Shown here piece by piece: positions 1 through 12,349 of a DNA stretch of 42,886 nucleotides. Position 1 is the first letter of the stretch; each line of letters opens with the position of its first letter. Location: the NCBI GenBank assembly GCA_040235515.1, contig JBECKX010000164.1, positions 1 through 42,886 on the forward strand. The letters run 5' to 3'. The notes under the pieces are model-generated. The model was given only the letters and a program-made list of their open reading frames with translations, was not told where the DNA came from and did no database searches. The position numbers and the translations under genes were made by a program. The DNA is from Candidatus Zixiibacteriota bacterium. GTDB taxonomy: Bacteria > Zixibacteria > MSB-5A5 > CAIYYT01.

Positions 1-1253
1 GTCTATGGCTGTACAGCGAGGGGGACAAAGTCCTTATCAGTTCCGCCCTGGCAACTGACTCAGCCACGCTCACCTGGGGGAAGGATATGGGTAGCCTGCA
101 CGCGCGGATTCACACGCAGGGCTTCAATACAATCGTGCGTAGCTGGGACTACAAGAAGAAGGAGGCGATTGTCGCCAAATCGTCCAGTTCGACCGAACTC
201 TCATCGGCGGCCAAGAACGCCTCGAAAGTGGCAAAAGAAACCAAGTTATTCAGGGATGAGTCGTATATTGATATCAGGATGACTGGCACGGTGCCTGTCG
301 ATAGTTTCAAAACTGCTGCCAACGCCGCCGCCGAGGGTGCAAAGTCGGGCCTGGCGCGATGCAATGGGCAGACGAACGTGCCCGGTCTGAGAGTCGGTTT
401 TACCGTCAAGATCGAAGGCAGCGGCGCCGCCTGGAACAGCCAATATTTCGTGACCAAGGTCACGCACGTTATCGAGGAGGGGAGCTATTACAATTTCTTC
501 GAATCGCTTCCGCTCGATATCGCACACCCGGAGTGGCAAAATCCGAATCCTCCGATATCCGACTTCATCGTCGGGATCGTAACTAACCTGGATGATCCTG
601 ACAAGCTTGGTCGAGTAAAGGTAAAATTCCCCACTCTTGACAGTGCCGGCTCAGAGTTGGAAAGTGATTGGGCGCGAATCAGCTCACTGTATGCCGGCAA
701 TGAGCGCGGGATTTTCTTCCTGCCGGAAGTCGGTGATGAGGTGCTGGTCTGCTTCGAACGGGGCGATATCAATCACCCGATCGTGGTCGGCTGCCTCTGG
801 AATGGCAAAGACCAGCCTTCGATGGCTGATGCGAGCAACAGCGCTGCGGAAAATGACATCAAGACCATCTACACCAGGTCTGGTCACCAGATAACGTTCT
901 GCGACAAATCCGGGGGAGAGTCGATCAAGATTATCGACAGTAGCGAAGGCAACTTCATCATTATCAATACCTCAGAGCAAAAGATCAGCATAGTCTCGGA
1001 CAAAGATATCGCCATCGAAGCAGGCAAGGATATCACGCTGACTGCCAAGGGTGATATCAAACTCGAAGGGGCTAATATTTCGATGTCGGCGAAACAGAAG
1101 TTTGGTGTCGAGGGTGGATCCCAGGTCGATGTGAAATCGAACGGAATGATGAGCCTGGAGGCCAGCGCGACCGGCAAATTGAAGGGTGCCATGCTCGACC
1201 TGGATGGCGGTTCGATGTGTAATGTCAAGGGTGCCATGATTAAGCTGAACTAA
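1..1253 (+). CDS. vgrG: VgrG / baseplate spike protein (Gp5 OB-fold plus beta-helix), 5'-truncated by window edge
   Basis: Frame is open from base 3 (LWLYSEGDKV...). Gp5-OB motifs DPDKLGRVKVKFP and WARISSLYAG..RGIFFLPEVGDEVLVCFERGD; C-terminal beta-helix repeats end in GAMIKLN. Confidence 0.88.
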   Translation, partial: LWLYSEGDKVLISSALATDSATLTWGKDMGSLHARIHTQGFNTIVRSWDYKKKEAIVAKSSSSTELSSAAKNASKVAKETKLFRDESYIDIRMTGTVPVDSFKTAANAAAEGAKSGLARCNGQTNVPGLRVGFTVKIEGSGAAWNSQYFVTKVTHVIEEGSYYNFFESLPLDIAHPEWQNPNPPISDFIVGIVTNLDDPDKLGRVKVKFPTLDSAGSELESDWARISSLYAGNERGIFFLPEVGDEVLVCFERGDINHPIVVGCLWNGKDQPSMADASNSAAENDIKTIYTRSGHQITFCDKSGGESIKIIDSSEGNFIIINTSEQKISIVSDKDIAIEAGKDITLTAKGDIKLEGANISMSAKQKFGVEGGSQVDVKSNGMMSLEASATGKLKGAMLDLDGGSMCNVKGAMIKLN

Positions 1254-1276
1254 CGTTTGCAACGTATTGGAGATTG

Positions 1277-1621
1277 ATGGCCAACGAAGCTCTACGTGTT
1301 CCAATCGAATTAAAGGGTAGTCAATTTGTGCGCTCCACCTCCACGGTGGAGTTTGCCCGTTTTCTATTGGAAACTGAACTGGGCAGCTACGAACCTGATC
1401 TGGAATTCGGCTGCCGCTCTCCTTATTTCACTCCGGAGTATACCGAAGACCTGAGGGTCACGGTACGCAACCACGTGATCGAGCAGTTTCGTCGTTACAT
1501 GGGGCTTGATGTCAATGTCTTGATCTCTGAAAACGTGCAATCGGCGGTTGCGACCTTTGCCTGCGAGATCACCGGGACCGATAACCGCGGTGAGCGGTTC
1601 AAGCTAATCTGGGAGATATAG
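1277..1621 (+). CDS. tssE: gp25/TssE-like baseplate wedge protein
   Basis: 114 aa between vgrG and tssF; LLETELGSYEPDLEFGC resembles the gp25/TssE T..GE...D.EFGC motif; GGAG just upstream of ATG 1277. Confidence 0.62.
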   Translation: MANEALRVPIELKGSQFVRSTSTVEFARFLLETELGSYEPDLEFGCRSPYFTPEYTEDLRVTVRNHVIEQFRRYMGLDVNVLISENVQSAVATFACEITGTDNRGERFKLIWEI

Positions 1622-1624
1622 TCG

Positions 1625-3382
1625 ATGGCGGAAAAATGGAGTGATCGTCACGAACAAGCATACCAGGAAGTAGTGGATCGGCTGCGTTTCTGGGGTTATC
1701 CGGTACCGACCGGCGAGAAGCAGATGGACCCGGCGCTGCTGCTGATGCTAAAGACATTTGCGCATCACACCGTCGCGACCGAGGATCGCCTCAGGAAAGC
1801 TTCCGAAGAAGTGATCGACTCTTTTGTCAGCGAGTTCTTCCTGACCGGGTTGAAACGTCCGACGCCGGCATTCACGATGGTGTCGTGCACCTGCACCGAG
1901 CAACGCGCGATCGTTGAGGACGATCTGGAGTTCCGCTGTTCGATCGGTGGCCATAACCCTAAGGAGTATTCGTTCTATCCACTCTATTCCCAGGAGATCT
2001 ACGAGATCAACTCCGACCTGGTGATCTTCACTTCAGGTGAGTACCTGCGAGTGCTCAAGACCCTGCCGGAAGAAACGGAGAAGTGGGAAGAGGCACTTGA
2101 CTCGCCGGCGTATCGCAACATGAAACGACAGGAACCGCCGCCGCGCGGTGGCAGCTTCTATATCGGCGTGACCAGCTCACTCAATCTCGAGAATGTCGAG
2201 GGCATCACACTCTATCTCGGGCCCGACAGTCGAGTCGCCAATTCGTTGAAATGGGCGGACTGGAGCATCTTGAGCGAGAGCGGCTATGGCGACAGATTCA
2301 AGGCGGGCGCGTTCGAGGACCGCCTCGAGATATTCAAACATCTCGACATTCGTGAGTATGAATTCGATACGAACTTTTCCAGTCGTCTATACAGTTCCGA
2401 TTTGCTGACTTCGGGCAAGACGATGTGGCACTTCAAGCACTACCTGGGAGCGGCACGCAACTTCATTTATCTGCCGTCGGAGCATTTGAGTGTGGCAACC
2501 AAGATGACGGTACCGCCTGAGATCGAGCGCCGATTCGCTCATCTCGATTACTCCGGCCTCTCCACACCGCGCTGGTGGATCAAGGTTGATCTTGCGCCGG
2601 ACCACGAAATCGGCGACCTGCGGCGCTACCGGTACTTCGACACCAATACACTTCTGCTGATAAACCGCCAGAAATTGCATCGCAACAAGTACACGATGGG
2701 ACAGCCGGTGCTTGAAGTTAACCTGTTCGACAGTCCGACCGATGATGGTGAGCATCTACCTGACAAGCTATTTGCAATCGAGCGCGTCTGGGATTCGCGC
2801 GAGGATGAGTACGTCAACAGTCTGGACATGAGTGCCTACGGCAACCCCAGAAAGTACGTCGTTGCCGATGAGGAGGGCTCGATCAAGATCAAGTTCGACT
2901 TCCAGGTGAGCGGCAAATTGCCACCCGACTTCGTGGTGGTGGAGTACTCACTCACCGACGGCGAGAACGGTAACGGTATCGGCTCCGACGTCGAGATAGA
3001 GCTGGCGGGGGAGCATCCTCAGATAGAGGGTGTCCGCAATCTGCTCACATCCTCCGGGGGATCGAACGCCAAGACTCCGGAGGAGATCAAGCGGCTGATC
3101 GGTTTCTTCCTGCGCAACCATGGTACCGCTCTTTCCAATTCTGAGATCGAGTTTCTGGCTCGCAGTTTCGACACGAGGATTACCCGCGCTCGCGCGGAGC
3201 GAACGATTCTGCCCACCGACGGCGGATTGGTGCCATCGGTTCGGGTGGCGATCAATCTTGATCCCGGTGCAAAGATGGCCGATGAGGAAAAGCGCTGGAT
3301 GCTCGACCGGCTCAGTTCTTACCTCGACTGCTATACACCCCTTAACCTCAGGCTGATCGCCGAAATGGCCCCTGAAGGGTAG
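1625..3382 (+). CDS. tssF: T6SS baseplate protein TssF (Bacteroidota T6SS-iii-like)
   Basis: 585 aa; N-terminus RLRFWGY...MDPALLLMLKTFA matches the T6SS-iii TssF pattern (WG...DP...L); C-terminal TDGENGNGI and NLLTSSGG baseplate-J-like motifs. Confidence 0.75.
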   Translation: MAEKWSDRHEQAYQEVVDRLRFWGYPVPTGEKQMDPALLLMLKTFAHHTVATEDRLRKASEEVIDSFVSEFFLTGLKRPTPAFTMVSCTCTEQRAIVEDDLEFRCSIGGHNPKEYSFYPLYSQEIYEINSDLVIFTSGEYLRVLKTLPEETEKWEEALDSPAYRNMKRQEPPPRGGSFYIGVTSSLNLENVEGITLYLGPDSRVANSLKWADWSILSESGYGDRFKAGAFEDRLEIFKHLDIREYEFDTNFSSRLYSSDLLTSGKTMWHFKHYLGAARNFIYLPSEHLSVATKMTVPPEIERRFAHLDYSGLSTPRWWIKVDLAPDHEIGDLRRYRYFDTNTLLLINRQKLHRNKYTMGQPVLEVNLFDSPTDDGEHLPDKLFAIERVWDSREDEYVNSLDMSAYGNPRKYVVADEEGSIKIKFDFQVSGKLPPDFVVVEYSLTDGENGNGIGSDVEIELAGEHPQIEGVRNLLTSSGGSNAKTPEEIKRLIGFFLRNHGTALSNSEIEFLARSFDTRITRARAERTILPTDGGLVPSVRVAINLDPGAKMADEEKRWMLDRLSSYLDCYTPLNLRLIAEMAPEG

Positions 3383-3424
3383 TGCCGGAGTGTGGATGGA
3401 ATCGAAAGCTGCCATGGTGACTGA

Positions 3425-4345
3425 ATGAAGACCGGATTTATTACACAGCATCAGCCAGTCAACAAGCGCACCCGGCTGTCGGAGTTTTCACTGCTGCTGG
3501 CAAAGCTCGATGTTAAGGCGCAGCAGTTTTATTTCCGCAGCCTGGAGGCGCACGGCAATTATCACACGGACATCAAGTCGATCCGAACGGTGGCCACCCG
3601 CGGCGAGGGGCGCAGGGAGGAGCGTGTCGTCGACGCGCATCTGCCCTCATTCAAGAATTACTTCCCGGAATCTTTCTTTGTAGAGCTTCTCGAGGAATCG
3701 GACACGCTCGCGGGCAGATTCGAGGACCGTTTCCTCGAGTTCTGGAGCGCCTTCGACACGACAACCTACCGGAACTGGATCGACATTTACACGCTGCAGC
3801 TGCGGATGCTCTTTGTCGTGTCAGACGAGGAAACCGAAAACCTCTACTGGCAGCGACTCGGTGGCGATATGCCGAGCCTGCCGCCGGAAGAACGGAGATT
3901 TCTTTTGCTCCTGCGGTTCTTTGGCCCATTCCTGCGTGGTCGCTCGCTCCTCTTTGATCGGATCATTCCAGCTTTCACGGGCAAGCCGACCCATGTCGAA
4001 GAGTTTGTGCCGGCCCAGACCGAGATCCCGGAGCAGTTGCAATGGTCATTGGGCAAGAAAAACAGCCGCCTGGGGCGTGACATTTTCCCGGGTCGCCAAT
4101 TCACGCAAAACTCGACGCGGTTCCGGGTAGTCCTGGAGCAACTGGACGAAGAAGATATTCCTGATTTTATTCCTCATGGTAAACGCCGGGTGTTGTTGGA
4201 GAACCTGAGCAGGCTGTTTGCGCCTGCACATCAGGATTCGCAGCTCGAATACCGATTCAAGGCGGGTCTGCAATTGTTCACTCCGGGCACGCAACACCAA
4301 ACAGCTTACCTGGGACTTTCAACATACTTGCGGGAGACCTTTTAG
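3425..4345 (+). CDS. tssG: T6SS baseplate protein TssG
   Basis: 306 aa directly after tssF; C-terminal WSLGKKNSRLGRD..PG, DFIPHGK and YLGLSTYL motifs are typical of TssG. Confidence 0.7.
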   Translation: MKTGFITQHQPVNKRTRLSEFSLLLAKLDVKAQQFYFRSLEAHGNYHTDIKSIRTVATRGEGRREERVVDAHLPSFKNYFPESFFVELLEESDTLAGRFEDRFLEFWSAFDTTTYRNWIDIYTLQLRMLFVVSDEETENLYWQRLGGDMPSLPPEERRFLLLLRFFGPFLRGRSLLFDRIIPAFTGKPTHVEEFVPAQTEIPEQLQWSLGKKNSRLGRDIFPGRQFTQNSTRFRVVLEQLDEEDIPDFIPHGKRRVLLENLSRLFAPAHQDSQLEYRFKAGLQLFTPGTQHQTAYLGLSTYLRETF

Positions 4346-4420
4346 CGGGGTATATTGCTGGCCAAATTGCCGGCTAATCTGCGCGGTTTTATCATCGGTG
4401 CTACAGGTTTGCAGCGCAGG

Positions 4421-4429
4421 TGGTAAACT
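4421..4429 (+). promoter_or_regulatory. Possible extended -10 internal promoter upstream of tssK
   Basis: TGGTAAACT (TGn-TAAACT) in the 134-bp tssG-tssK gap, about 50 nt before ATG 4480; no clear -35. Confidence 0.25.
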
Positions 4430-4479
4430 CCCGACAAGAGTCTTGGCAGAACTCTTTATCTGAATGGGCAGAAAGCAGT

Positions 4480-5952
4480 ATGGATAATCTAAATGTATGG
4501 GGCGTAAACTGGATCGACGGTATGCTCGTAACCAGTCGCCACTTGAATCAACAGGAAGAATTCGCGCAGAACCTGACTCGCTGGTCAGCATTAGCGCTTG
4601 CCCCCGGCTATGGCCTTGCCAAGAGCGCCATCAGCAACAGCGAACCGCTCGAGATCCAATTGAGGCGCAGCGGGAATACGCTGACAGTGGAAGTACAACA
4701 TTGCACCGCGTTGTTGCCCAACGGCACAATCGTCAACATCAACGACGCCTTCCGCAAACACAAGGCGGTTGAGTTGAAGATCGATGTCTCCAAGCGCAAC
4801 GATGATACGATCCCGGTGTTCCTCTACTCTGCAACCGACAAAGTCACACAGTTCGGCGAGCCGCTGCAGGGTGAACAACTGAGCCGGTTGCCTTACCAGA
4901 CTCCCAAGATCATCCTGACCGATAAGCCGTCGGAGGATTTGCCGAGTTCCGCGTCGATACAACTTGCCGAGATCAAGTACGATGGGACCGACTACGAGTT
5001 GAATGAGCGATTCGTCCCGCCGGTGCTTTCGACCTCGTGCGGTAAAGCGGTCGGCAATCGTATGGAGCAGGTTCGCAAGAATGTTGACCAGATACAGCGC
5101 GCCGCGCTGCAGGCGGTGGCGGAGGTTCGCAACCTGGTCAAAGCCAAGCCATCCGCCGGTGAGGAGGAGCGGCTGCGCGGGATTTTCCTGCAGTCGGAGA
5201 ATCTCCTGCACCTGTTGAGCTTCAACTACAACAGAATCTTCGCCAACGCGGTCGGCGTTGACTTTCCGACCCTGCATTGCTTCTTCACAGGTATCGTCGG
5301 CAGTTTCCAGCAGGCATTCCTGATCTATCCCGATCTGCGCGAGTATGTTCGAGCCGCAGAATTGCAGGCAGGCGAGCGCACGGTGAACGGCGGGGACGCC
5401 CTCTCCTCTCTCCGTGACTATCAGACCGGCAACTTCGGTTTCCATGAGATGACACAGTTCTTCGACGCAACAGACAAGACATTCGAGAACCTGCAGGCGA
5501 TCTTGAGCTACTACTCCTCCGGTAAGGAGGGTCCGAAGGGTGACTCTATCGAACAGGACGGATTCCGTTTCCTGGCGCAACGTCACGGAGCAGTCCGTTA
5601 CACAGCCAGCGGTGGAAGACACCTGATCGTCATCGACGGTGTCGATCCGCGCGCTACAGAGGATGTTGTGGTGAGATTGCACAAGAAGGTCCTGCCGATG
5701 CAGTATGCGGGCAACGTGATCATCTACCTCGGCGCCAATGAGATCGACGATATCGCTGCCGCGTCGGTGGCACGCAAGCCGGTGGAGGATGTATCCGATC
5801 CCGATTACTGGCTGATCCAGCCGAATGAATATTTCCCGCTCAAAGCGAGCCGCCTTGATCGACTCAATGTGATCATTGATGGTGAGGTTGATGCTGCAGC
5901 CTTGAAAGCGGTACAGATGAATCACGTCGCAATCTTCTCGCGGTCGCGTTAG
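4480..5952 (+). CDS. tssK: T6SS baseplate-membrane connector TssK with C-terminal extra domain
   Basis: VNWIDGMLVTSRHLNQQE is the TssK N-terminal signature, with GYGL and LNERFVPPVLS motifs; ATG 4480 preferred over GTG 4420; 490 aa. Confidence 0.75.
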   Translation: MDNLNVWGVNWIDGMLVTSRHLNQQEEFAQNLTRWSALALAPGYGLAKSAISNSEPLEIQLRRSGNTLTVEVQHCTALLPNGTIVNINDAFRKHKAVELKIDVSKRNDDTIPVFLYSATDKVTQFGEPLQGEQLSRLPYQTPKIILTDKPSEDLPSSASIQLAEIKYDGTDYELNERFVPPVLSTSCGKAVGNRMEQVRKNVDQIQRAALQAVAEVRNLVKAKPSAGEEERLRGIFLQSENLLHLLSFNYNRIFANAVGVDFPTLHCFFTGIVGSFQQAFLIYPDLREYVRAAELQAGERTVNGGDALSSLRDYQTGNFGFHEMTQFFDATDKTFENLQAILSYYSSGKEGPKGDSIEQDGFRFLAQRHGAVRYTASGGRHLIVIDGVDPRATEDVVVRLHKKVLPMQYAGNVIIYLGANEIDDIAAASVARKPVEDVSDPDYWLIQPNEYFPLKASRLDRLNVIIDGEVDAAALKAVQMNHVAIFSRSR

Positions 5953-5972
5953 GCGAGGTTCAGAGAGAGAGC

Positions 5973-6971
5973 ATGTCGGAACGCGTTAAAGCTGTCATCA
6001 ATTCCCTCTTCGTTCAGCTTAATCGAGCAGAGCGCCAGCAATCTGATTTCAGCGCTGATACATTCATGCGCGACTTCGCTGCGTTCTTTTCGGGCGTGGA
6101 CAGTGCTGACATGCAGACTCAGGGTGGGGAAATCGACGAGCAGCTCAAGCTGCGCATCAATAATGTCCCACGCAACGCCCAGCCCCTGACACTCGTTACC
6201 GCCAACGTCCTGGCTCTCTATTTCTGGTATGTGCGTCGCCCACCCCAGCAGTGCCAGAACGCGTTCCTGGCCGCGAAGAAGCTCCGCGGAATCACCGACG
6301 ACAGCCAGTTCGTCGAACAGGCGATAGCGCCATTGATTTTCGGCGGCAAGATCCCGGCACTGAAGAAATCGGATCGCGACTTCCGCGAGGCGTTGCTTGA
6401 ACGGACGGCACAGATTGCCGTCAATTTCCGCGAGAGCGATCAGGTTCCGCAATCGGCGACTCGTATCATTCGCTCCGATTCGTGGCAGAAGAAGATGCTG
6501 CACATCGAGGCACTGCGGCAGCGCGGGGCGATGGCGGAAATCCAGGACTTCGCGCCGAAAGATCACCTCGAGGCGATCTCGCGCACCAATGATTTTGCAG
6601 CCTACTATCTGCGTAAACACAATATCTACAAAGGCGAAAACCGTTTCCTGCGCTGGCTGCGAAACCTGTTCGCCAATTTCTTCTCACTGCTGTTTTCGTT
6701 CCTCAACTGGCGTTTCGTCATGCACCTGTTCAAGAACAAGTGGCCGGTATACCTGGTCTACCTTTTCGTCGCGGTGCTGTTTGTTGCGGCAGCGTACTTC
6801 GCTCGCGTACCGTGGCAGTATGTCCATGAACAGAAAGTGGAAGAACTGCAGGAGATGAACCCGATCGGCGTCGATAAAGCCGTATCGGCGGCATCGACCA
6901 AACCAACACCAGCGGTTAATCCAGCCGGTGCGGATTCTGTGGATACCTCTGATCAAGAGAGTGAGGGATAA
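5973..6971 (+). CDS. Hypothetical membrane protein, helical N-terminal domain plus C-terminal TM helix (TssL-like topology)
   Basis: 332 aa; hydrophobic stretch WPVYLVYLFVAVLFVAAAYF near the C-terminus, followed by a short low-complexity tail; co-oriented and tightly spaced after tssK. Confidence 0.8.
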   Translation: MSERVKAVINSLFVQLNRAERQQSDFSADTFMRDFAAFFSGVDSADMQTQGGEIDEQLKLRINNVPRNAQPLTLVTANVLALYFWYVRRPPQQCQNAFLAAKKLRGITDDSQFVEQAIAPLIFGGKIPALKKSDRDFREALLERTAQIAVNFRESDQVPQSATRIIRSDSWQKKMLHIEALRQRGAMAEIQDFAPKDHLEAISRTNDFAAYYLRKHNIYKGENRFLRWLRNLFANFFSLLFSFLNWRFVMHLFKNKWPVYLVYLFVAVLFVAAAYFARVPWQYVHEQKVEELQEMNPIGVDKAVSAASTKPTPAVNPAGADSVDTSDQESEG

Positions 6972-6973
6972 CG

Positions 6974-8887
6974 ATGAATCCGTTTGCTCTGATCAAGAAA
7001 GTGTTCACTGCCTTCAAGAAGAAGTCGGCAGAACAGGCTGAAGCCGATAAGGGGCCGGCCGGTGCGCCATTTGAGAAGGATGATAACGTTGTCCTGGTCT
7101 TCGGCCATTCCAATGCCGGAAAGACGGTATACTTCTCCGTCCTGTACGAACTGCTAAAAGGCGATTCTTCCTACAAGCTATCTCCCTTAAACAATGAGAC
7201 CGCCGCCACGCTGATCGAGAATTTCAATCTGATGCGGGGCAAGCAGCTCAAGATCAAAGATGGACGGCAGGTGGAGGTGGAAGGGGAGCGGAAATTCCCG
7301 ACGATGACTTCCGAGACCAGAATCTTGAAGTTTGGGCTCGATATGTCGCTCCGCAAGGGAGTCAAGTTCTATACGGTCGACTACAAGGGCGAGACGCTTT
7401 CGATCGCCGAACCGGGTGGTCTGCGCAAGCAATTCGCCAAGTTCTTCCCGCACGCGCGCGCGGCACTATTTTTCATTGATGCATCGGTACTCGATACCGA
7501 CGTCCTGCTGCGGGAACAGATTGCGGCGTTCCAGACGATCATCGCCGACCTGCGTGATTGTTCACCCGGCAGGGTCCCGATCGGTATCGTCATCACCAAG
7601 GCGGATTTCCTGGATGGCTATTCTCCCTCCAACCCGGTCGACCTGATACCGGCCAATGCCGCGATTTTCAAGGGCCGCAGCTCACAGTCGTTTATCAAGG
7701 GTCTGGCGCGGGTGAATCGCGAACGCTTCGGGGAGAAGTGGGCCAATACATGTGAACGCGTGACTCAAAACTTGCGGAACCTGATCGATTCGATGATCAG
7801 CTACAACCTCGATTTCCAATTCTTCTTCGTCTCCGCGACCGGCGGCCTTGAAAAGACTCCCAGTGGGGACGTCCTCCCCCCACGTGAGTTGGCGCCCGCC
7901 GGAGTCCCGCAACCACTCATCTGGGGATTCAACCGCATCCTCTTCAACAAGAGCAAGGCGCGCTGGAGGAAGATAATGAAGTGGGCCATCGGGTTGAGCC
8001 TGGTCTGGATTGCATTGGTCAGCCTGATCAACCTGTACCACATGTATGCCACCTACGATGTTCTGGAGAGGGCTGAGACGCAATTCCGCAAACGCTTCAA
8101 CCTGGAGGCGCCGGAGATCAGCAAAGAGGAGGCGGAGCGGATCACTGATTCGTACGATGATTACCTCAGCCGCCTGCCGGTAGCGGAGTTCTTCGGCGCA
8201 GGAGCACTGATCGAGCACAGCAAGGAGCGAAAGAATTTCGCAATCTCAAGGACCAACAATCTGCTCAAGCCACCGGCGGACTTCAACCAGGAGGATGCCG
8301 CCCCTGTCACCAATGAGGAACTCGGGTATAGTCCTGAGAAGACCAAACAAGCTCGTGAGAGTTACAACCGCATGACCGGAGATGTCGGGGATCTGCCTCC
8401 TGCTGAGCAGATTGCTGCGTTTGAGGCGGCAATCAACAAGCTCTGGACCGAGTTTCCGAAGGATAGCCTGAATCCGAAGTTCGTGGAGAAGGTGATGCAG
8501 GCGCTCGACAACTTCAAGTCCGGTGTGGGGGCTGTATCAGAAGTCAAGTTTACACTTACGCTGGCTGTCGATGGTCTGCGTGAAGCTACGAAGATTTCTA
8601 TGAAGATCGGGACCGAGCCGGAAGCGGAATTCGTCAACTTCTCGACAAAGAAGAACCTGCAGAGCAAAGTCACTGGTATCGGAAACCAGCCGGTGGAACT
8701 CAAGTGGTTCGACTACGGACCCTCCAGTACCGGTCAGCCGCTAACGATGCGGTTCGACAACCCGATGCAGGACTTCTATCCCGAACTACGTAAAGGTGTG
8801 CGTCTCGATTTCGGAAAGGATTATGAGATTACACTCAAGCTGATTTCCGGATCGCCGCCACAACCTTCGGGACCTCCGAAGATCTAG
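6974..8887 (+). CDS. Membrane-anchored TRAFAC-class GTPase with C-terminal extracytoplasmic domain (TssM-like topology)
   Basis: G1 GHSNAGKT (7103-7126), G3 DYKG, G4 TKAD, G5 SAT; TM helix WAIGLSLVWIALVSLINL; about 280 aa helical then beta-rich region after the TM. Confidence 0.85.
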   Translation: MNPFALIKKVFTAFKKKSAEQAEADKGPAGAPFEKDDNVVLVFGHSNAGKTVYFSVLYELLKGDSSYKLSPLNNETAATLIENFNLMRGKQLKIKDGRQVEVEGERKFPTMTSETRILKFGLDMSLRKGVKFYTVDYKGETLSIAEPGGLRKQFAKFFPHARAALFFIDASVLDTDVLLREQIAAFQTIIADLRDCSPGRVPIGIVITKADFLDGYSPSNPVDLIPANAAIFKGRSSQSFIKGLARVNRERFGEKWANTCERVTQNLRNLIDSMISYNLDFQFFFVSATGGLEKTPSGDVLPPRELAPAGVPQPLIWGFNRILFNKSKARWRKIMKWAIGLSLVWIALVSLINLYHMYATYDVLERAETQFRKRFNLEAPEISKEEAERITDSYDDYLSRLPVAEFFGAGALIEHSKERKNFAISRTNNLLKPPADFNQEDAAPVTNEELGYSPEKTKQARESYNRMTGDVGDLPPAEQIAAFEAAINKLWTEFPKDSLNPKFVEKVMQALDNFKSGVGAVSEVKFTLTLAVDGLREATKISMKIGTEPEAEFVNFSTKKNLQSKVTGIGNQPVELKWFDYGPSSTGQPLTMRFDNPMQDFYPELRKGVRLDFGKDYEITLKLISGSPPQPSGPPKI

Positions 8888-8941
8888 CAACCACTTCAAT
8901 CGGCCAACTCCCAAACCACCGGCAATTCGAGGGCAGCTAGC

Positions 8942-9835
8942 ATGCAAATCGCTGACTTGATTTATGGCACCTTCCCCGATTTACCGGGATCGCAGCAGGT
9001 AGTCCACAGGTCAGACTCGATCGACGAAACACTGCTTGAGTGGTTGATCACGAGCTATGATCGTTTCGGTGATTGCCGCAGCGAGGAGTTCAAGAACTCG
9101 GTCACGGTGGTCTGGTATCGACACGACCCCTCGAATCCTCTCACCTGCATCACCAAAGTCACTCAACAATCGAAAGATTTCTCAGGCAGATGGGGTGCGC
9201 TGCTGCGGCATACCGTGATCGTACCGCAGGCCGAGTACGAGCGTCACGCCTGCCTGCCGCTCCTGTTCGCCAGTCGTCTGGTCGAATCAGGTGGCTCAGA
9301 AGAATTGGGCGCGCGGGAGGATCTGCAACTGGAAATAGCGCAGCCATTGCACTCGAGTGAGATAATCGCCGGTGCCTCGATCGAAAGCTACAAGGAGAAC
9401 ATCGGCAAGCTGCTACTCGGCGAAAGGTTGGTTTTGTACTCCGATGCACTCAACGATTACCTGAGCGGTTACCTGAGCACACTGGTTGCCCTGTTGCCGC
9501 TTCAGGCAAGACGGATGCTGAATTGGTCACAGTTCCTCTTTCGGGAATGGGAGGCGCTGGACCTCAGCGTGGTTTACAACTCGCGCTACGAAGCGCCGAC
9601 GGGCGGCCCGGTAACCTTCGCCGCCCAGGGTAAGAACCTCTTGAGTGCGCTGCAGCTTTCCTCAGCCGACGTCGCCTCCTATCTTGATCGTTTGGAGCGG
9701 GCATTCGCTGCTGAGGATCACGCCGAACTCGCGGCATTGCTGGATTCAGAGGATTGGCGGAGTGAGGCTACGACTGCCGCGGCGGAATCGCCGCGGGCTG
9801 ATGTGGAAAGAAAAAGCGATGAGTCAGAGAACTGA
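8942..9835 (+). CDS. GTPase-associated protein 1 N-terminal (GAP1-N)-like / TagF-like protein
   Basis: 297 aa; IADLIYGTF...QQVVHRS and KDFSGRWGALLRHTVIV resemble GAP1-N domain motifs (D..GR.G....H.L); last gene of the operon. Confidence 0.55.
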   Translation: MQIADLIYGTFPDLPGSQQVVHRSDSIDETLLEWLITSYDRFGDCRSEEFKNSVTVVWYRHDPSNPLTCITKVTQQSKDFSGRWGALLRHTVIVPQAEYERHACLPLLFASRLVESGGSEELGAREDLQLEIAQPLHSSEIIAGASIESYKENIGKLLLGERLVLYSDALNDYLSGYLSTLVALLPLQARRMLNWSQFLFREWEALDLSVVYNSRYEAPTGGPVTFAAQGKNLLSALQLSSADVASYLDRLERAFAAEDHAELAALLDSEDWRSEATTAAAESPRADVERKSDESEN

Positions 9836-9871: not shown

Positions 9872-10399
9872 TTACTTCTGGTAGACGACCGGTGTGTCTT
9901 CCTTGACAACCGGCTTGAAGAGATTCTGACCCTCCGGGAATTTTACATCATTGCCCTTCAGGATGAATCCCTGCAACCACGGCGGTATGTAGGAGACTAT
10001 TTTCTTTACGCCGCCACCTTCACCCTTGAACTCCACGACACCGCGCAGCGGGATCAATGTTCCGCCGGATGATTTAGTCGAATCGAAGTTGATCGTCATC
10101 ATGCCGTTGCGGCCGAATGAGCTGCCGCCACGACGCTTGATCATCGTCGCATAAACGACTTCACGCTTGTTGACCAGTTTCTGGTCGAACCTCATGACGT
10201 TCTCCAGCACCTTCAGGGTCACAACCTGACCGGGGCGTGCAGATTTCATGGCAGTGAAATCATCCTGATCAAGGTAGACTGGAATGGAGTCACCCTGATT
10301 GAGCAATGCGTCACCGGTCGCCTGCGCGGCGGCATTCGGTGCGCAGAACGCCAGGGCCAGAGCCACAAGCCCGATTAATATAATCCCTGTTAACTTCAT
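9872..10399 (-). CDS. Secreted protein, possible TrbI/VirB10-like beta domain
   Basis: Sec signal MKLTGIILIGLVALALAFCAPNAAA; strong SD (GGAGGT); pattern KSARPGQ.V.L.V.ENV...FGRNG.M.I.FDS....G..IPLRG. Confidence 0.75.
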   Translation of the reverse strand: MKLTGIILIGLVALALAFCAPNAAAQATGDALLNQGDSIPVYLDQDDFTAMKSARPGQVVTLKVLENVMRFDQKLVNKREVVYATMIKRRGGSSFGRNGMMTINFDSTKSSGGTLIPLRGVVEFKGEGGGVKKIVSYIPPWLQGFILKGNDVKFPEGQNLFKPVVKEDTPVVYQK

Positions 10400-10522: not shown

Positions 10523-12349
10523 CTACTCGACAGTTACCGACTTGGCGAGGTTACGGGGCTGGTCGACATCGCAGCCGCGCATCACGGCGATATAATAAGC
10601 CAACAGCTGTAGCGGAATCGCCGCGACCAGCGGGTTGAGATGATATGGCACCTTTGGCAGATAGATCACGTGATTCGCCAGGCGCCTGATATCCTCGTCA
10701 CCCTCCGTGGCGATAGCGATTACTTTGCCATTGCGGGCTTTGATCTCCTGGATATTGGAGATAACCTTGTCATAAACCTGATCCTGCTGGGCCAGTACCA
10801 CGACCGGCATATTCTCATCGATCAGGGCGATCGGTCCATGCTTCATTTCGGCGGCCGGATAACCCTCGGCGTGGATATAGGAGATTTCTTTAAGTTTGAG
10901 TGCTCCCTCGAGCGCCACCGGGAAATTGATCCCGCGGCCGAGGTAGAGGAAGTTTTCTTTTCCGGCATACATTTCAGCGATCTTCTTGATCTCGTCGTCG
11001 CGCTGAAGTAGTTCCTCTACCATCCCCGGAATGCTCTCCATCGCGGCAATGATCTGGCGCCCCTTCTCGAGGGAGACATCACGCTGACGGGCCAGCAACA
11101 GGGTTAACAGCGACAGCACCGCGACCTGGGAAGTGAATGCCTTTGTGGACGCAACCCCGATTTCCGGTCCGGCGTGGATATAGATGCCGCCATCAGATTC
11201 CCGGGCGATTGTCGAGCCAACCACGTTGCAGATTCCAAGGACGGTTGCTCCCTTGCGCTTCGCTTCACGCAAAGCCGCCAGCGTATCGGCTGTCTCGCCC
11301 GACTGGCTTATCACGAATACCAGCGTTCCGTGATCAATGATCGGGGAGCGATAGCGGAACTCGGACGCGTACTCGACTTCGACCGGAATGCGCGCGAGGT
11401 CCTCGATCATATATTCGCCAATCAGGGCCGAGTGCCAGGAAGTCCCGCAGGCCGAGAAGATGATCCGCTTGACATTGAGAAGTTCTTCATACTGCAGTTT
11501 GAGGCCGTTAAGACGCGCGGTGCCATCCTCGTAATTGAGGCGCCCGCGGGTGGCGTTGCGCAGCGTGGTAGGCTGCTCATAGATCTCTTTGAGCATGAAG
11601 TGGTCAAAACCGCTCTTCTCGAGCTGTTCCAGATCCCACTCGATATCATGATAGCGCTGCGAAACCGGGACGTTGTCCATGGTTGAGATCTGGACACCAT
11701 CCCGCGAGATCGTGGCAACTTCACCCTCGCCGAGATAGACGACGCGCTTGGTGTGCTCCAGCATCGCTGCGACATCGGAAGCAATCATGTTTTCTCCGTC
11801 ACCGACTCCCACGACCAGCGGCGAGCCATGTCTGGCGGCCACGATGACATCAGGATTGTCGAGAGAGACAACGGCGATTCCATAGGTTCCTTCAACCTGC
11901 GACATCGCCAGCTGGACCGCGCGCGTGAGGTTGCCTTCATAGAATTCTTCGATCAGGTGAGCGATCACTTCGGTGTCGGTGTCGGAGCTGAAGGTGTGCC
12001 CTTTCTGCTCCAGCAGGGAACGCAACGGTCCGAAGTTCTCGATGATCCCGTTGTGCACCACAGCGATCTTGCCCGCGCCATCGAAGTGTGGATGTGCATT
12101 GAGGTCGTTCGGTACGCCATGGGTTGCCCAGCGCGTATGCGCCACACCCACCGTACCGCTGAAGGTCTGGTCCTTCAGCTTCGACTCGAGGTTCTTGATC
12201 TTGCCGGCAGCCTTCTCGGCAGTGACACGACCATCCTCGATTATCGCGATTCCGGCTGAATCATAGCCACGATATTCAAGCCGCTTGAGGCCATTCATCA
12301 AAATCGGATATGCCGGACGGTCCCCAATGTAAGCAACTATTCCGCACAT
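10523..12349 (-). CDS. glmS: Glutamine-fructose-6-phosphate aminotransferase
   Basis: MCGIV start, RLEYRGYDSAG, HTRWATHG, EMKHGP, C-terminal PRNLAKSVTVE. Confidence 0.99.
   Translation of the reverse strand: MCGIVAYIGDRPAYPILMNGLKRLEYRGYDSAGIAIIEDGRVTAEKAAGKIKNLESKLKDQTFSGTVGVAHTRWATHGVPNDLNAHPHFDGAGKIAVVHNGIIENFGPLRSLLEQKGHTFSSDTDTEVIAHLIEEFYEGNLTRAVQLAMSQVEGTYGIAVVSLDNPDVIVAARHGSPLVVGVGDGENMIASDVAAMLEHTKRVVYLGEGEVATISRDGVQISTMDNVPVSQRYHDIEWDLEQLEKSGFDHFMLKEIYEQPTTLRNATRGRLNYEDGTARLNGLKLQYEELLNVKRIIFSACGTSWHSALIGEYMIEDLARIPVEVEYASEFRYRSPIIDHGTLVFVISQSGETADTLAALREAKRKGATVLGICNVVGSTIARESDGGIYIHAGPEIGVASTKAFTSQVAVLSLLTLLLARQRDVSLEKGRQIIAAMESIPGMVEELLQRDDEIKKIAEMYAGKENFLYLGRGINFPVALEGALKLKEISYIHAEGYPAAEMKHGPIALIDENMPVVVLAQQDQVYDKVISNIQEIKARNGKVIAIATEGDEDIRRLANHVIYLPKVPYHLNPLVAAIPLQLLAYYIAVMRGCDVDQPRNLAKSVTVE

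Follow-up and report, generated by a model that had tools for sequence, protein, structure and literature searches.

A candidate type VI secretion system subtype in Zixibacteria with a T6SS-iii-like tail and a membrane GTPase module

In type VI secretion systems (T6SSs) in general, contraction of the TssBC sheath propels an Hcp tube whose VgrG-PAAR tip carries cargo, and the sheath is recycled by ClpV. In T6SS-i, TssK docks on the membrane complex through its C-terminal domain, and TssJ binds TssM at its C-terminal periplasmic domain; extracellular contractile injection systems (eCISs) and T6SS-iv have a single-chain sheath, without TssK and without ClpV. Four T6SS clades are recognized in a 2026 review, with T6SS-iii confined to Bacteroidota (PMC13584744), and T6SS-iii was found in none of more than 20,000 other genomes, the origin of the two membrane complexes being left open (PMC10781749). 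This study concerns a 42,886-nucleotide stretch of DNA from a Candidatus Zixiibacteriota bacterium (the window), which is the whole of contig JBECKX010000164.1 in assembly GCA_040235515.1 (C108 of genome G000 in our survey) and starts within vgrG. Its first eight genes join vgrG and the baseplate genes of a T6SS-iii-like tail to a single-pass membrane protein (ORF5973; ORF, open reading frame), a membrane GTPase (ORF6974) and a GAP1 protein (ORF8942).

DO-GTPase-GAP1 pairs have been described as conflict-system switches near the membrane, from predicted anti-invader systems and lacking close relatives elsewhere (PMC7159879), and DENN modules (longin-DENN-dDENN) are known as Rab guanine nucleotide exchange factors (GEFs; PMC3521125). 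A literature search found no description of the present system, supplements and most subscription papers being outside its reach. The sought terms are not mentioned in PMC12210884, and the accessible passages of PMC7159879 describe the GTPase-GAP1 pair without mention of a T6SS-like context; its source data could list such neighborhoods. We consider it probable (roughly 0.66) that the locus belongs to an undescribed T6SS subtype, anchored to the cell by an envelope complex of a third kind, and that this subtype is clade-wide in Zixibacteria and occurs in part of a second phylum. It appears to work like a T6SS but falls outside T6SS-iii and T6SS-i on its membrane complex, and is therefore presented as a candidate subtype.

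Tail class and known membrane anchors

The eight co-oriented genes recognized in the preliminary description were all confirmed on the plus strand, from position 3 to 9835, with intergenic gaps of 20, 3, 42, 134 (74 with a GTG start), 20, 2, and 54 bp (Table 1). Their G+C content is ordinary for the window, and the run is not a chance arrangement, since its gene order is kept in relatives. The genes for the sheath and ClpV lie elsewhere in the same genome: contig C177 carries kinase-clpV(D1)-clpV(D2)-tssB-tssC, stopping 162 bp short of the contig end. No hcp was found in this assembly; because relatives carry hcp between tssC and vgrG, it most likely sits in the assembly gap between C177 and the window. 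The unbroken order in relatives is clpV-tssB-tssC-hcp-vgrG-tssE-tssF-tssG-tssK-ORF5973-GTPase, and PAAR, variable genes and DcrB often stand ahead of it; contig C129 of the window's genome holds a PAAR-DcrB cassette (a PAAR gene and a DcrB-like gene). The general T6SS parts are thus all represented, namely, the TssB/TssC sheath, Hcp (in relatives), VgrG, PAAR, TssEFGK, and ClpV. With TssB and TssC, TssK, and ClpV all present, an eCIS or T6SS-iv reading was rejected, in agreement with the earlier argument from TssK.

To assign the tail to a class, profiles built from new-type loci were scored against T6SS-iii and T6SS-i proteins. The scores were 251-264 bits versus 0-13 for TssC (four versus five sequences), 70-79 versus 18-33 for TssB, 65-101 versus 4-30 for TssF, 77-126 versus 16-27 for TssK, 42-63 versus 6-17 for TssE, and 26-69 versus at most 6 for Hcp, with TssG ambiguous (14-57 versus 37-63). 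A third ORF, included as a TssK candidate, reached -1 and is unlikely to be one. The genome's own TssC matches PF17541 (E 1e-52), the Hcp of relatives matches PF17642, and a TssC tree of 15 rows groups the new type with Bacteroidota at 100/100 against T6SS-i. The same tree does not settle the order of events (p-AU of 0.40 in the approximately unbiased test for the new type as one clade versus one including Bacteroidota). The T6SS-iii likeness originally proposed for the baseplate accordingly holds for TssE, TssF, and TssK by profile score and for the tail by the TssC tree, but is ambiguous for TssG. The likeness of TssK to its T6SS-iii counterpart stops at profile position 341 of 482, and its C-terminal domain is, on sequence comparison, lineage specific.

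Like T6SS-iii of Bacteroidota (TssNQOPR), the new type also has a membrane-protein gene adjoining tssK. It differs in its own TssK C-terminal domain, its GTPase module, its often split ClpV, the failure to find TssN and TssR, and its host outside Bacteroidota, where the survey of PMC10781749 cited above found no T6SS-iii. Moreover, TssN is a multipass, ubiquitin-like membrane protein (PMC10781749), whereas ORF5973 beside tssK has one transmembrane segment (TM) and no beta strands.

Whether a tssNOPQR or tssJLM set lies elsewhere had been raised at the outset. Profiles for IcmF-related_N and DotU found nothing in the window's own genome (0/1; control positive), nor did IcmF in four near-closed relatives (0/4; control positive) or DotU and TssJ in four genomes including G000 (0/4; controls positive). 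TssN (PF17555) and TssR (PF17643) gave 0/1 in the own genome, where no control rang, and 0/4 each in relatives with genomes of 1-5 contigs, where the Bacteroidota control was positive. Hence, TssN, TssR, TssJ, TssL, and TssM were not found in the own genome and near-closed relatives, and the core of the proposal stands. For TssO, TssP, and TssQ, the module profiles gave no match to single sequences, no genome-wide search being made. No unassigned conserved gene is left in the conserved block of relatives, and viral contigs held no TssM loci. Detection models requiring TssN-R or TssJLM would miss the new type.

Distribution and proteins of the envelope module

Among 285 genomes of the window's phylum, in which kin are not independent, ORF5973 was found in 145, the GTPase in 144, and TssC in 145. 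Comparison of the lists places all three markers in 140 genomes, at least one in 147, and none in 138; the seven mismatched genomes come as assemblies in 260-620 contigs. Of the phylum's 20 families, 7 contain hits, usually as a single copy. In a second phylum (that of G285, recorded as Krumholzibacteriota), ORF5973 occurs in 21 of 201 genomes, and two genomes there (G346, G330) carry a deep variant, tssK-ORF5973-GTPase-GAP1-c12, all co-oriented, with GAP1 in a 1,008-amino-acid (aa) fusion. Two loci recorded under other phyla (L062, L105) were placed in the window's phylum by genome search; depositor labels do not give the range.

For linkage, we used the best 80 of 132 GTDB loci, selected through their GTPase, and the best 80 of 113 metagenome loci. 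In the GTDB set, ORF5973 lies directly upstream of the GTPase in 79/80 loci (one cut) and is preceded by tssK in 75/79 (four cut); in the metagenome set, ORF5973 and the GTPase are adjacent in 67/80, cut in 10, and relocated in 3. Wherever sequence covers the junction, ORF5973 directly follows tssK (75/75 and 59/60). What follows the GTPase in the GTDB set is c12, a gene for an exported protein, on the same strand (57/80), GAP1 (15/80, with c12 directly after it in 10 of these 15), or a contig end (8/80). Relocated GTPase genes still have c12 beside them in 4/4 cases with sequence, and ORF5973 stays with tssK. At relocated sites (L121, L122, L124, L126), the GTPase comes after arrays of PD40 beta-propeller and PEGA/barrel genes, and c12 and PAAR come after it.

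These results alter the three-gene module of the preliminary description. ORF5973 and ORF6974 form the core and follow the tail in other genomes, co-occurring with TssC, but ORF8942 is accessory, its GAP1 family being found in 25/285 phylum genomes. In addition, the module does not end at 9835: it reaches to a minus-strand ORF at 9872-10399, the fourth and more widely linked gene c12, which had been missed. GAP1 cannot be required, since about 120 genomes have the core with GAP1 not found, and its presence in three distant groups suggests that it was lost in the majority type.

ORF6974 carries motifs G1 to G5, in the GTPase-TM layout first noted for it, with one TM predicted by hydropathy scan at aa 334-352. 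Among 82 full-length GTPases, 81 retain G1, all 82 retain G3, and 81 retain G4. The window copy has DxxGE, in which the Glu after Walker B/G3 is a DO-GTPase trait kept in 28/82, and its match to PF19993 reaches 23 bits, below the Pfam cut-off of 27. A profile search of 1.84 billion representatives had 150 proteins among the matches listed; 57 of the 70 scanned match DO-GTPase models and none IcmF-related_N. One GTPase relative matches IcmF-related_N weakly (E 0.003). Aligned by HHalign to 11 TssM N-terminal domains, the GTPase gave a probability (P) of 68% (E 4.6e-5) in the G4-G5 region, above 60/60 shuffles, and TssM shows matching G1, G3, G4, and G5 motifs. A quick tree of 86 rows (two dropped for want of a Walker A match) intermixes the new GTPases with DO-GTPases and sets TssM on a long separate branch. 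From these profile matches, alignments, motifs, and tree, we classify ORF6974 as a TRAFAC GTPase of the DO-GTPase family and only a remote homologue of TssM. Its periplasmic region has no profile match to TssM, and the GTPases are 620-830 aa long with one TM, versus about 1,200 aa for TssM. The named homologues of ORF5973, ORF6974, and ORF8942 are Zixibacteria proteins.

ORF5973, whose C-terminal TM was confirmed (aa 259-277), is modeled by AlphaFold2 (AF2) with helices only, at a mean predicted local distance difference test (pLDDT) of 87.8. Its 80 members share no Pfam family, there is no usable Atlas match, and Foldseek returned no match at an E of ≤0.001, only generic helical ones for residues 1-117. 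The fold searches tested mainly these residues; TssL is not among the matches listed, which does not exclude TssL. A first weak profile alignment of ORF5973 to TssL (P 1.8%) fell to null level with larger alignments (2/60 shuffles as high). The products of tssK-tssL and of tssK-tssN interact physically (PMC10781749), and the fixed place of ORF5973 after tssK mirrors both pairs, which leads us to propose it as the baseplate dock.

The c12 protein begins with a signal peptide, and close to its end lies a hydrophobic stretch that is conserved. Searches of Pfam and of PDB sequences matched nothing, no profile match to TssJ was obtained, and a suspected likeness to VirB10/TrbI was not confirmed (TraM, P 0.8%). 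A complex model of c12 with the GTPase periplasmic region of a relative (L059) scored 0.61 versus 0.01 for the best of three controls, on a mark reached by 116/157 solved pairs and 2/215 mismatched ones that holds only roughly with our own alignments. At least 88% of contacts are shared between runs, the partner has a pLDDT of at least 82, and the interface covers GTPase residues 639-690 of 739. The model supports binding of c12 to the GTPase periplasmic domain in this relative. An exported c12 paralogue on contig C14 (L244, 1366-2181; P 77%) has a glycine zipper in place of the hydrophobic stretch, the zipper matches being weak.

For ORF8942, in which no TM was predicted, Atlas features indicated GAP1-N2/GAP1-M (0.95, 204/256), with the recognition value under the tool's mark; the deep-lineage copy clears the Pfam cut-off (E 4e-9). 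Its model (pLDDT 93) has as top Foldseek match TagF of Acinetobacter baylyi (9t0n, E 1.3e-4), then FLCN/FNIP and DENND1. The best Z score is that of a longin domain (9.4; root mean square deviation [rmsd] 3.6, 126 residues aligned). Near full-length alignments were obtained with TagF (Z 7.5, rmsd 5.4, 214 aligned), DENND10 (7.9, 5.3, 229), and DENND1A/B (7.3-7.5, 5.5-5.7, 226-234; DENND1B, 7.5, 5.7, 226). In its model, ORF8942 resembles the Rab GEFs of PMC3521125 in a longin N-terminal domain and near full-length structural alignment, and differs in being bacterial, at about 10% identity (Z 6.5-7.9, rmsd 5-6 Å). From the models, it is a putative GTPase regulator; according to PMC13584744, TagF is a repressor and sequesters TagH. 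The preliminary description had recognized no tssL, tssM, or tagF motifs in the three genes, which holds for DotU, IcmF, and SciN profiles but not for the remote TssM(N) link of ORF6974 or the predicted TagF/DENN-like fold of ORF8942.

Compared with the GAP1-N2 conflict systems in the passages of PMC7159879, the window has the same GTPase-then-GAP1 order, DxxGE, and a membrane link. The new type differs in its single GTPase, in having no zinc ribbons, in its link with a contractile tail, in a GAP1 that went undetected in the majority of genomes, and in a Glu kept in only 28/82. The FNIII, tubulin, and HSP70 partners of those systems are not in its conserved block; likewise, FNIII/GASH partners and variable fused effectors are not in the conserved block of the 80 + 80 loci, no genome-wide search being made.

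Proposed mechanism and alternative readings

In the mechanism we propose, TssBC contraction would drive the Hcp tube with its VgrG-PAAR tip and cargo, PAAR and DcrB would load the cargo, and ClpV, often split into D1 and D2, would recycle the sheath. The TssEFGK baseplate would use the lineage-specific C-terminal domain of TssK to dock on ORF5973 and/or ORF6974 at their cytoplasmic domains. ORF6974 would be an envelope-spanning scaffold and switch, reaching the periplasm and binding exported c12, and the ORF5973-ORF6974-c12 complex would do the job of TssLMJ or TssNOPQR. This complex is probably GTP-switched: the ORF6974 GTPase cycle may gate assembly or firing, with ORF8942, where present, serving to activate it or to exchange its nucleotide. 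Remote homology probably links the GTPase-GAP1 pair with the TssM(N)-TagF pair.

About half of the Zixibacteria genomes surveyed combine a T6SS-iii-type tail with what would be a third module, made up of three or four proteins, and this would break the four-clade picture. It would also connect the DO-GTPase-GAP1 pair, described in PMC7159879 as lacking close relatives elsewhere, to a secretion machine. The GTPase-TssM(N) and GAP1-TagF-DENN links suggest roles, open to testing, for two components of T6SS-i that are still poorly understood. More tentatively, the new type could represent a fifth T6SS class in which the envelope complex ancestral to T6SS-i and T6SS-iii survives as a membrane GTPase and its DENN-like regulator; TssM-TagF would be its derived form, and TssNOPQR a replacement that arose later in Bacteroidota. 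If so, a Rab/DENN-like GTP switch would govern T6SS assembly, TagF would be what remains of a GTPase regulator, and bacteria would possess complete tripartite DENN-like modules in GAP1/TagF.

Several points weigh against a new subtype with this envelope complex. Secretion, anchoring, GTP hydrolysis, and TssK docking are deduced from sequences and models. The GTPase lies away from tssK-ORF5973 in five listed genomes (G264, G265, G058, G255, G044), and GAP1 was not found in the roughly 120 core-bearing genomes mentioned above. A lipobox is present in only 1/54 c12 proteins, leaving outer-membrane contact unexplained, and window-type c12 is convergent and not co-transcribed. The c12 complex model covers the majority type; its transfer to the window type is weakened by the GTPase C-terminal domain, which is not detectably homologous between the two (HHalign P 2%, 2/40 shuffles as high). 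For ORF8942, the TagF and DENN Z scores are middling (7-8), and profile comparison did not detect a GAP1-TagF relationship (8/60 shuffles as high). Finally, the anchor negatives cover TssN, TssR, and TssJ/L/M, with TssO/P/Q and TssA not searched genome-wide.

The three genes after tssK match tssL-tssM-tagF in order and topology, as first noted, and could with c12 be strongly diverged TssL-TssM-TagF(-TssJ) orthologues. The locus would then be a T6SS-iii tail on a T6SS-i-type membrane complex, a hybrid or ancestral state that overlaps partly with the new-subtype reading. A single-TM helical protein, an NTPase-TM-periplasmic protein, and a TagF-fold protein follow tssK in sequence; there are also the remote G-domain homology to TssM(N), the position of modeled c12 on the C-terminal periplasmic domain, where TssJ would bind TssM, and a kinase gene upstream in the window's family. 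We nevertheless regard this as unlikely, given a GTPase far nearer DO-GTPases than IcmF-related_N, half the size of TssM and separated from it by a long branch. Profiles gave no match between ORF5973 and TssL, c12 and TssJ, or the periplasmic region and TssM; DotU, IcmF, and SciN profile matches are lacking, the tail is of the other class, and the exported partner is no lipoprotein.

Less probable still is a contractile system tethered at the inner membrane whose firing does not cross the outer membrane, with the DO-GTPase-GAP1 switch triggering it inside the cell or periplasm in defence or self-lysis. The conflict-switch role of such pairs near the membrane (passages of PMC7159879) and a core without lipoprotein or barrel protein would fit this. 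However, the clpV gene is linked in every locus examined upstream, which fits repeated firing, and PAAR genes come with DcrB-like adaptors and variable cargo, some of it with peptidoglycan-binding or peptidase domains. The least probable alternative is that the GTPase genes are a merely co-located conflict module and that unrecognized genes elsewhere provide the true anchor. Profiles frequently overlook TssOQR even within Bacteroidota (PMC10781749), and some genomes have the GTPase at a separate locus, yet co-occurrence is near perfect even when unlinked, ORF5973 follows tssK at all but one covered junction, and the conserved block contains none of the FNIII or GASH partners known from described systems.

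Locus layout and neighboring genes

Full-length VgrG orthologues in relatives have about 615 aa. The window copies of TssE and TssF have no Pfam match of their own; their orthologues in one relative (G033) match gp25 PF04965 (E 8e-13) and TIGR03357, and T6SS_TssF PF05947 (E 3e-4), respectively. Beyond c12, the locus is bordered by the housekeeping gene glmS (10523-12349, minus strand), with no mobile-element gene seen at that edge.

Table 1. Genes of the T6SS-like locus in the window (HMM, hidden Markov model)
Feature	Coordinates	Strand	Evidence
vgrG, C-terminal ~416 aa (5' open, 5' part off contig)	3..1253	+	PF04717 E 4e-27, PF05954 E 3e-8, NF033848 E 6e-54
tssE (gp25-like wedge)	1274..1621	+	family HMM E 5e-32
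tssF	1625..3382	+	PHROG baseplate wedge E 9e-5
tssG	3425..4345	+	PF06996 E 4e-16
tssK	4420..5952 (alternative ATG start 4480)	+	TIGR03353 E 1.5e-13
ORF5973, core; predicted cytoplasmic protein of helices only, with a single TM at the C-terminus; outside known families	5973..6971	+	AF2 model, hydropathy scan
ORF6974, core; predicted bitopic GTPase, with a G domain of the DO-GTPase family in the cytoplasm, one TM, and a periplasmic region	6974..8887	+	PF19993 E 6e-5, motifs
ORF8942, accessory; GAP1 (longin + alpha/beta + helical, DENN/TagF-like)	8942..9835	+	PF20013 E 1e-4
c12, exported ~175-aa protein, signal peptide	9872..10399	-	family HMM E 3e-37

In the majority type (L233, 1066-6106; many of L059-L120), c12 is followed by a convergent block of four to five genes (LamG, unknown, TPR/CsgG-like, unknown, kinase-like), a possible envelope partner. 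Many metagenome loci have large variable ORFs of about 1,100-1,900 aa directly after c12 (L164, L170, L174, L216, L219). In two loci (L230, 7108-10134; L232), GAP1 is fused to about 730 further residues without a Pfam match.

The two clpV genes on C177 (L131, 2182-4700) encode Clp-N+D1 (473 aa) and D2 (361 aa). The split is found in 8/11 loci of one set and 6/9 clear cases of another, ClpV being otherwise fused, and this recurrence across loci marks it as natural rather than an assembly error. Several members of the window's family have a Ser/Thr kinase gene immediately upstream of clpV (L131, 5019-6260; L027, 14156-15193), with no FHA or phosphatase gene seen in the kinase-clpV block. The PAAR/DcrB block (L132, 5089-12074; L237-L243) is a probable cargo cassette, comprising PAAR with a C-terminal extension, large variable ORFs, a DcrB-like gene, and a conserved protein of ~300 aa akin to the PAAR extension; most of its ORFs have no Pfam match. 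Several core genes are in pieces in L048, L051, L077, and L083, probably through sequencing frameshifts, and G346 has two hcp genes and an inverted clpV.

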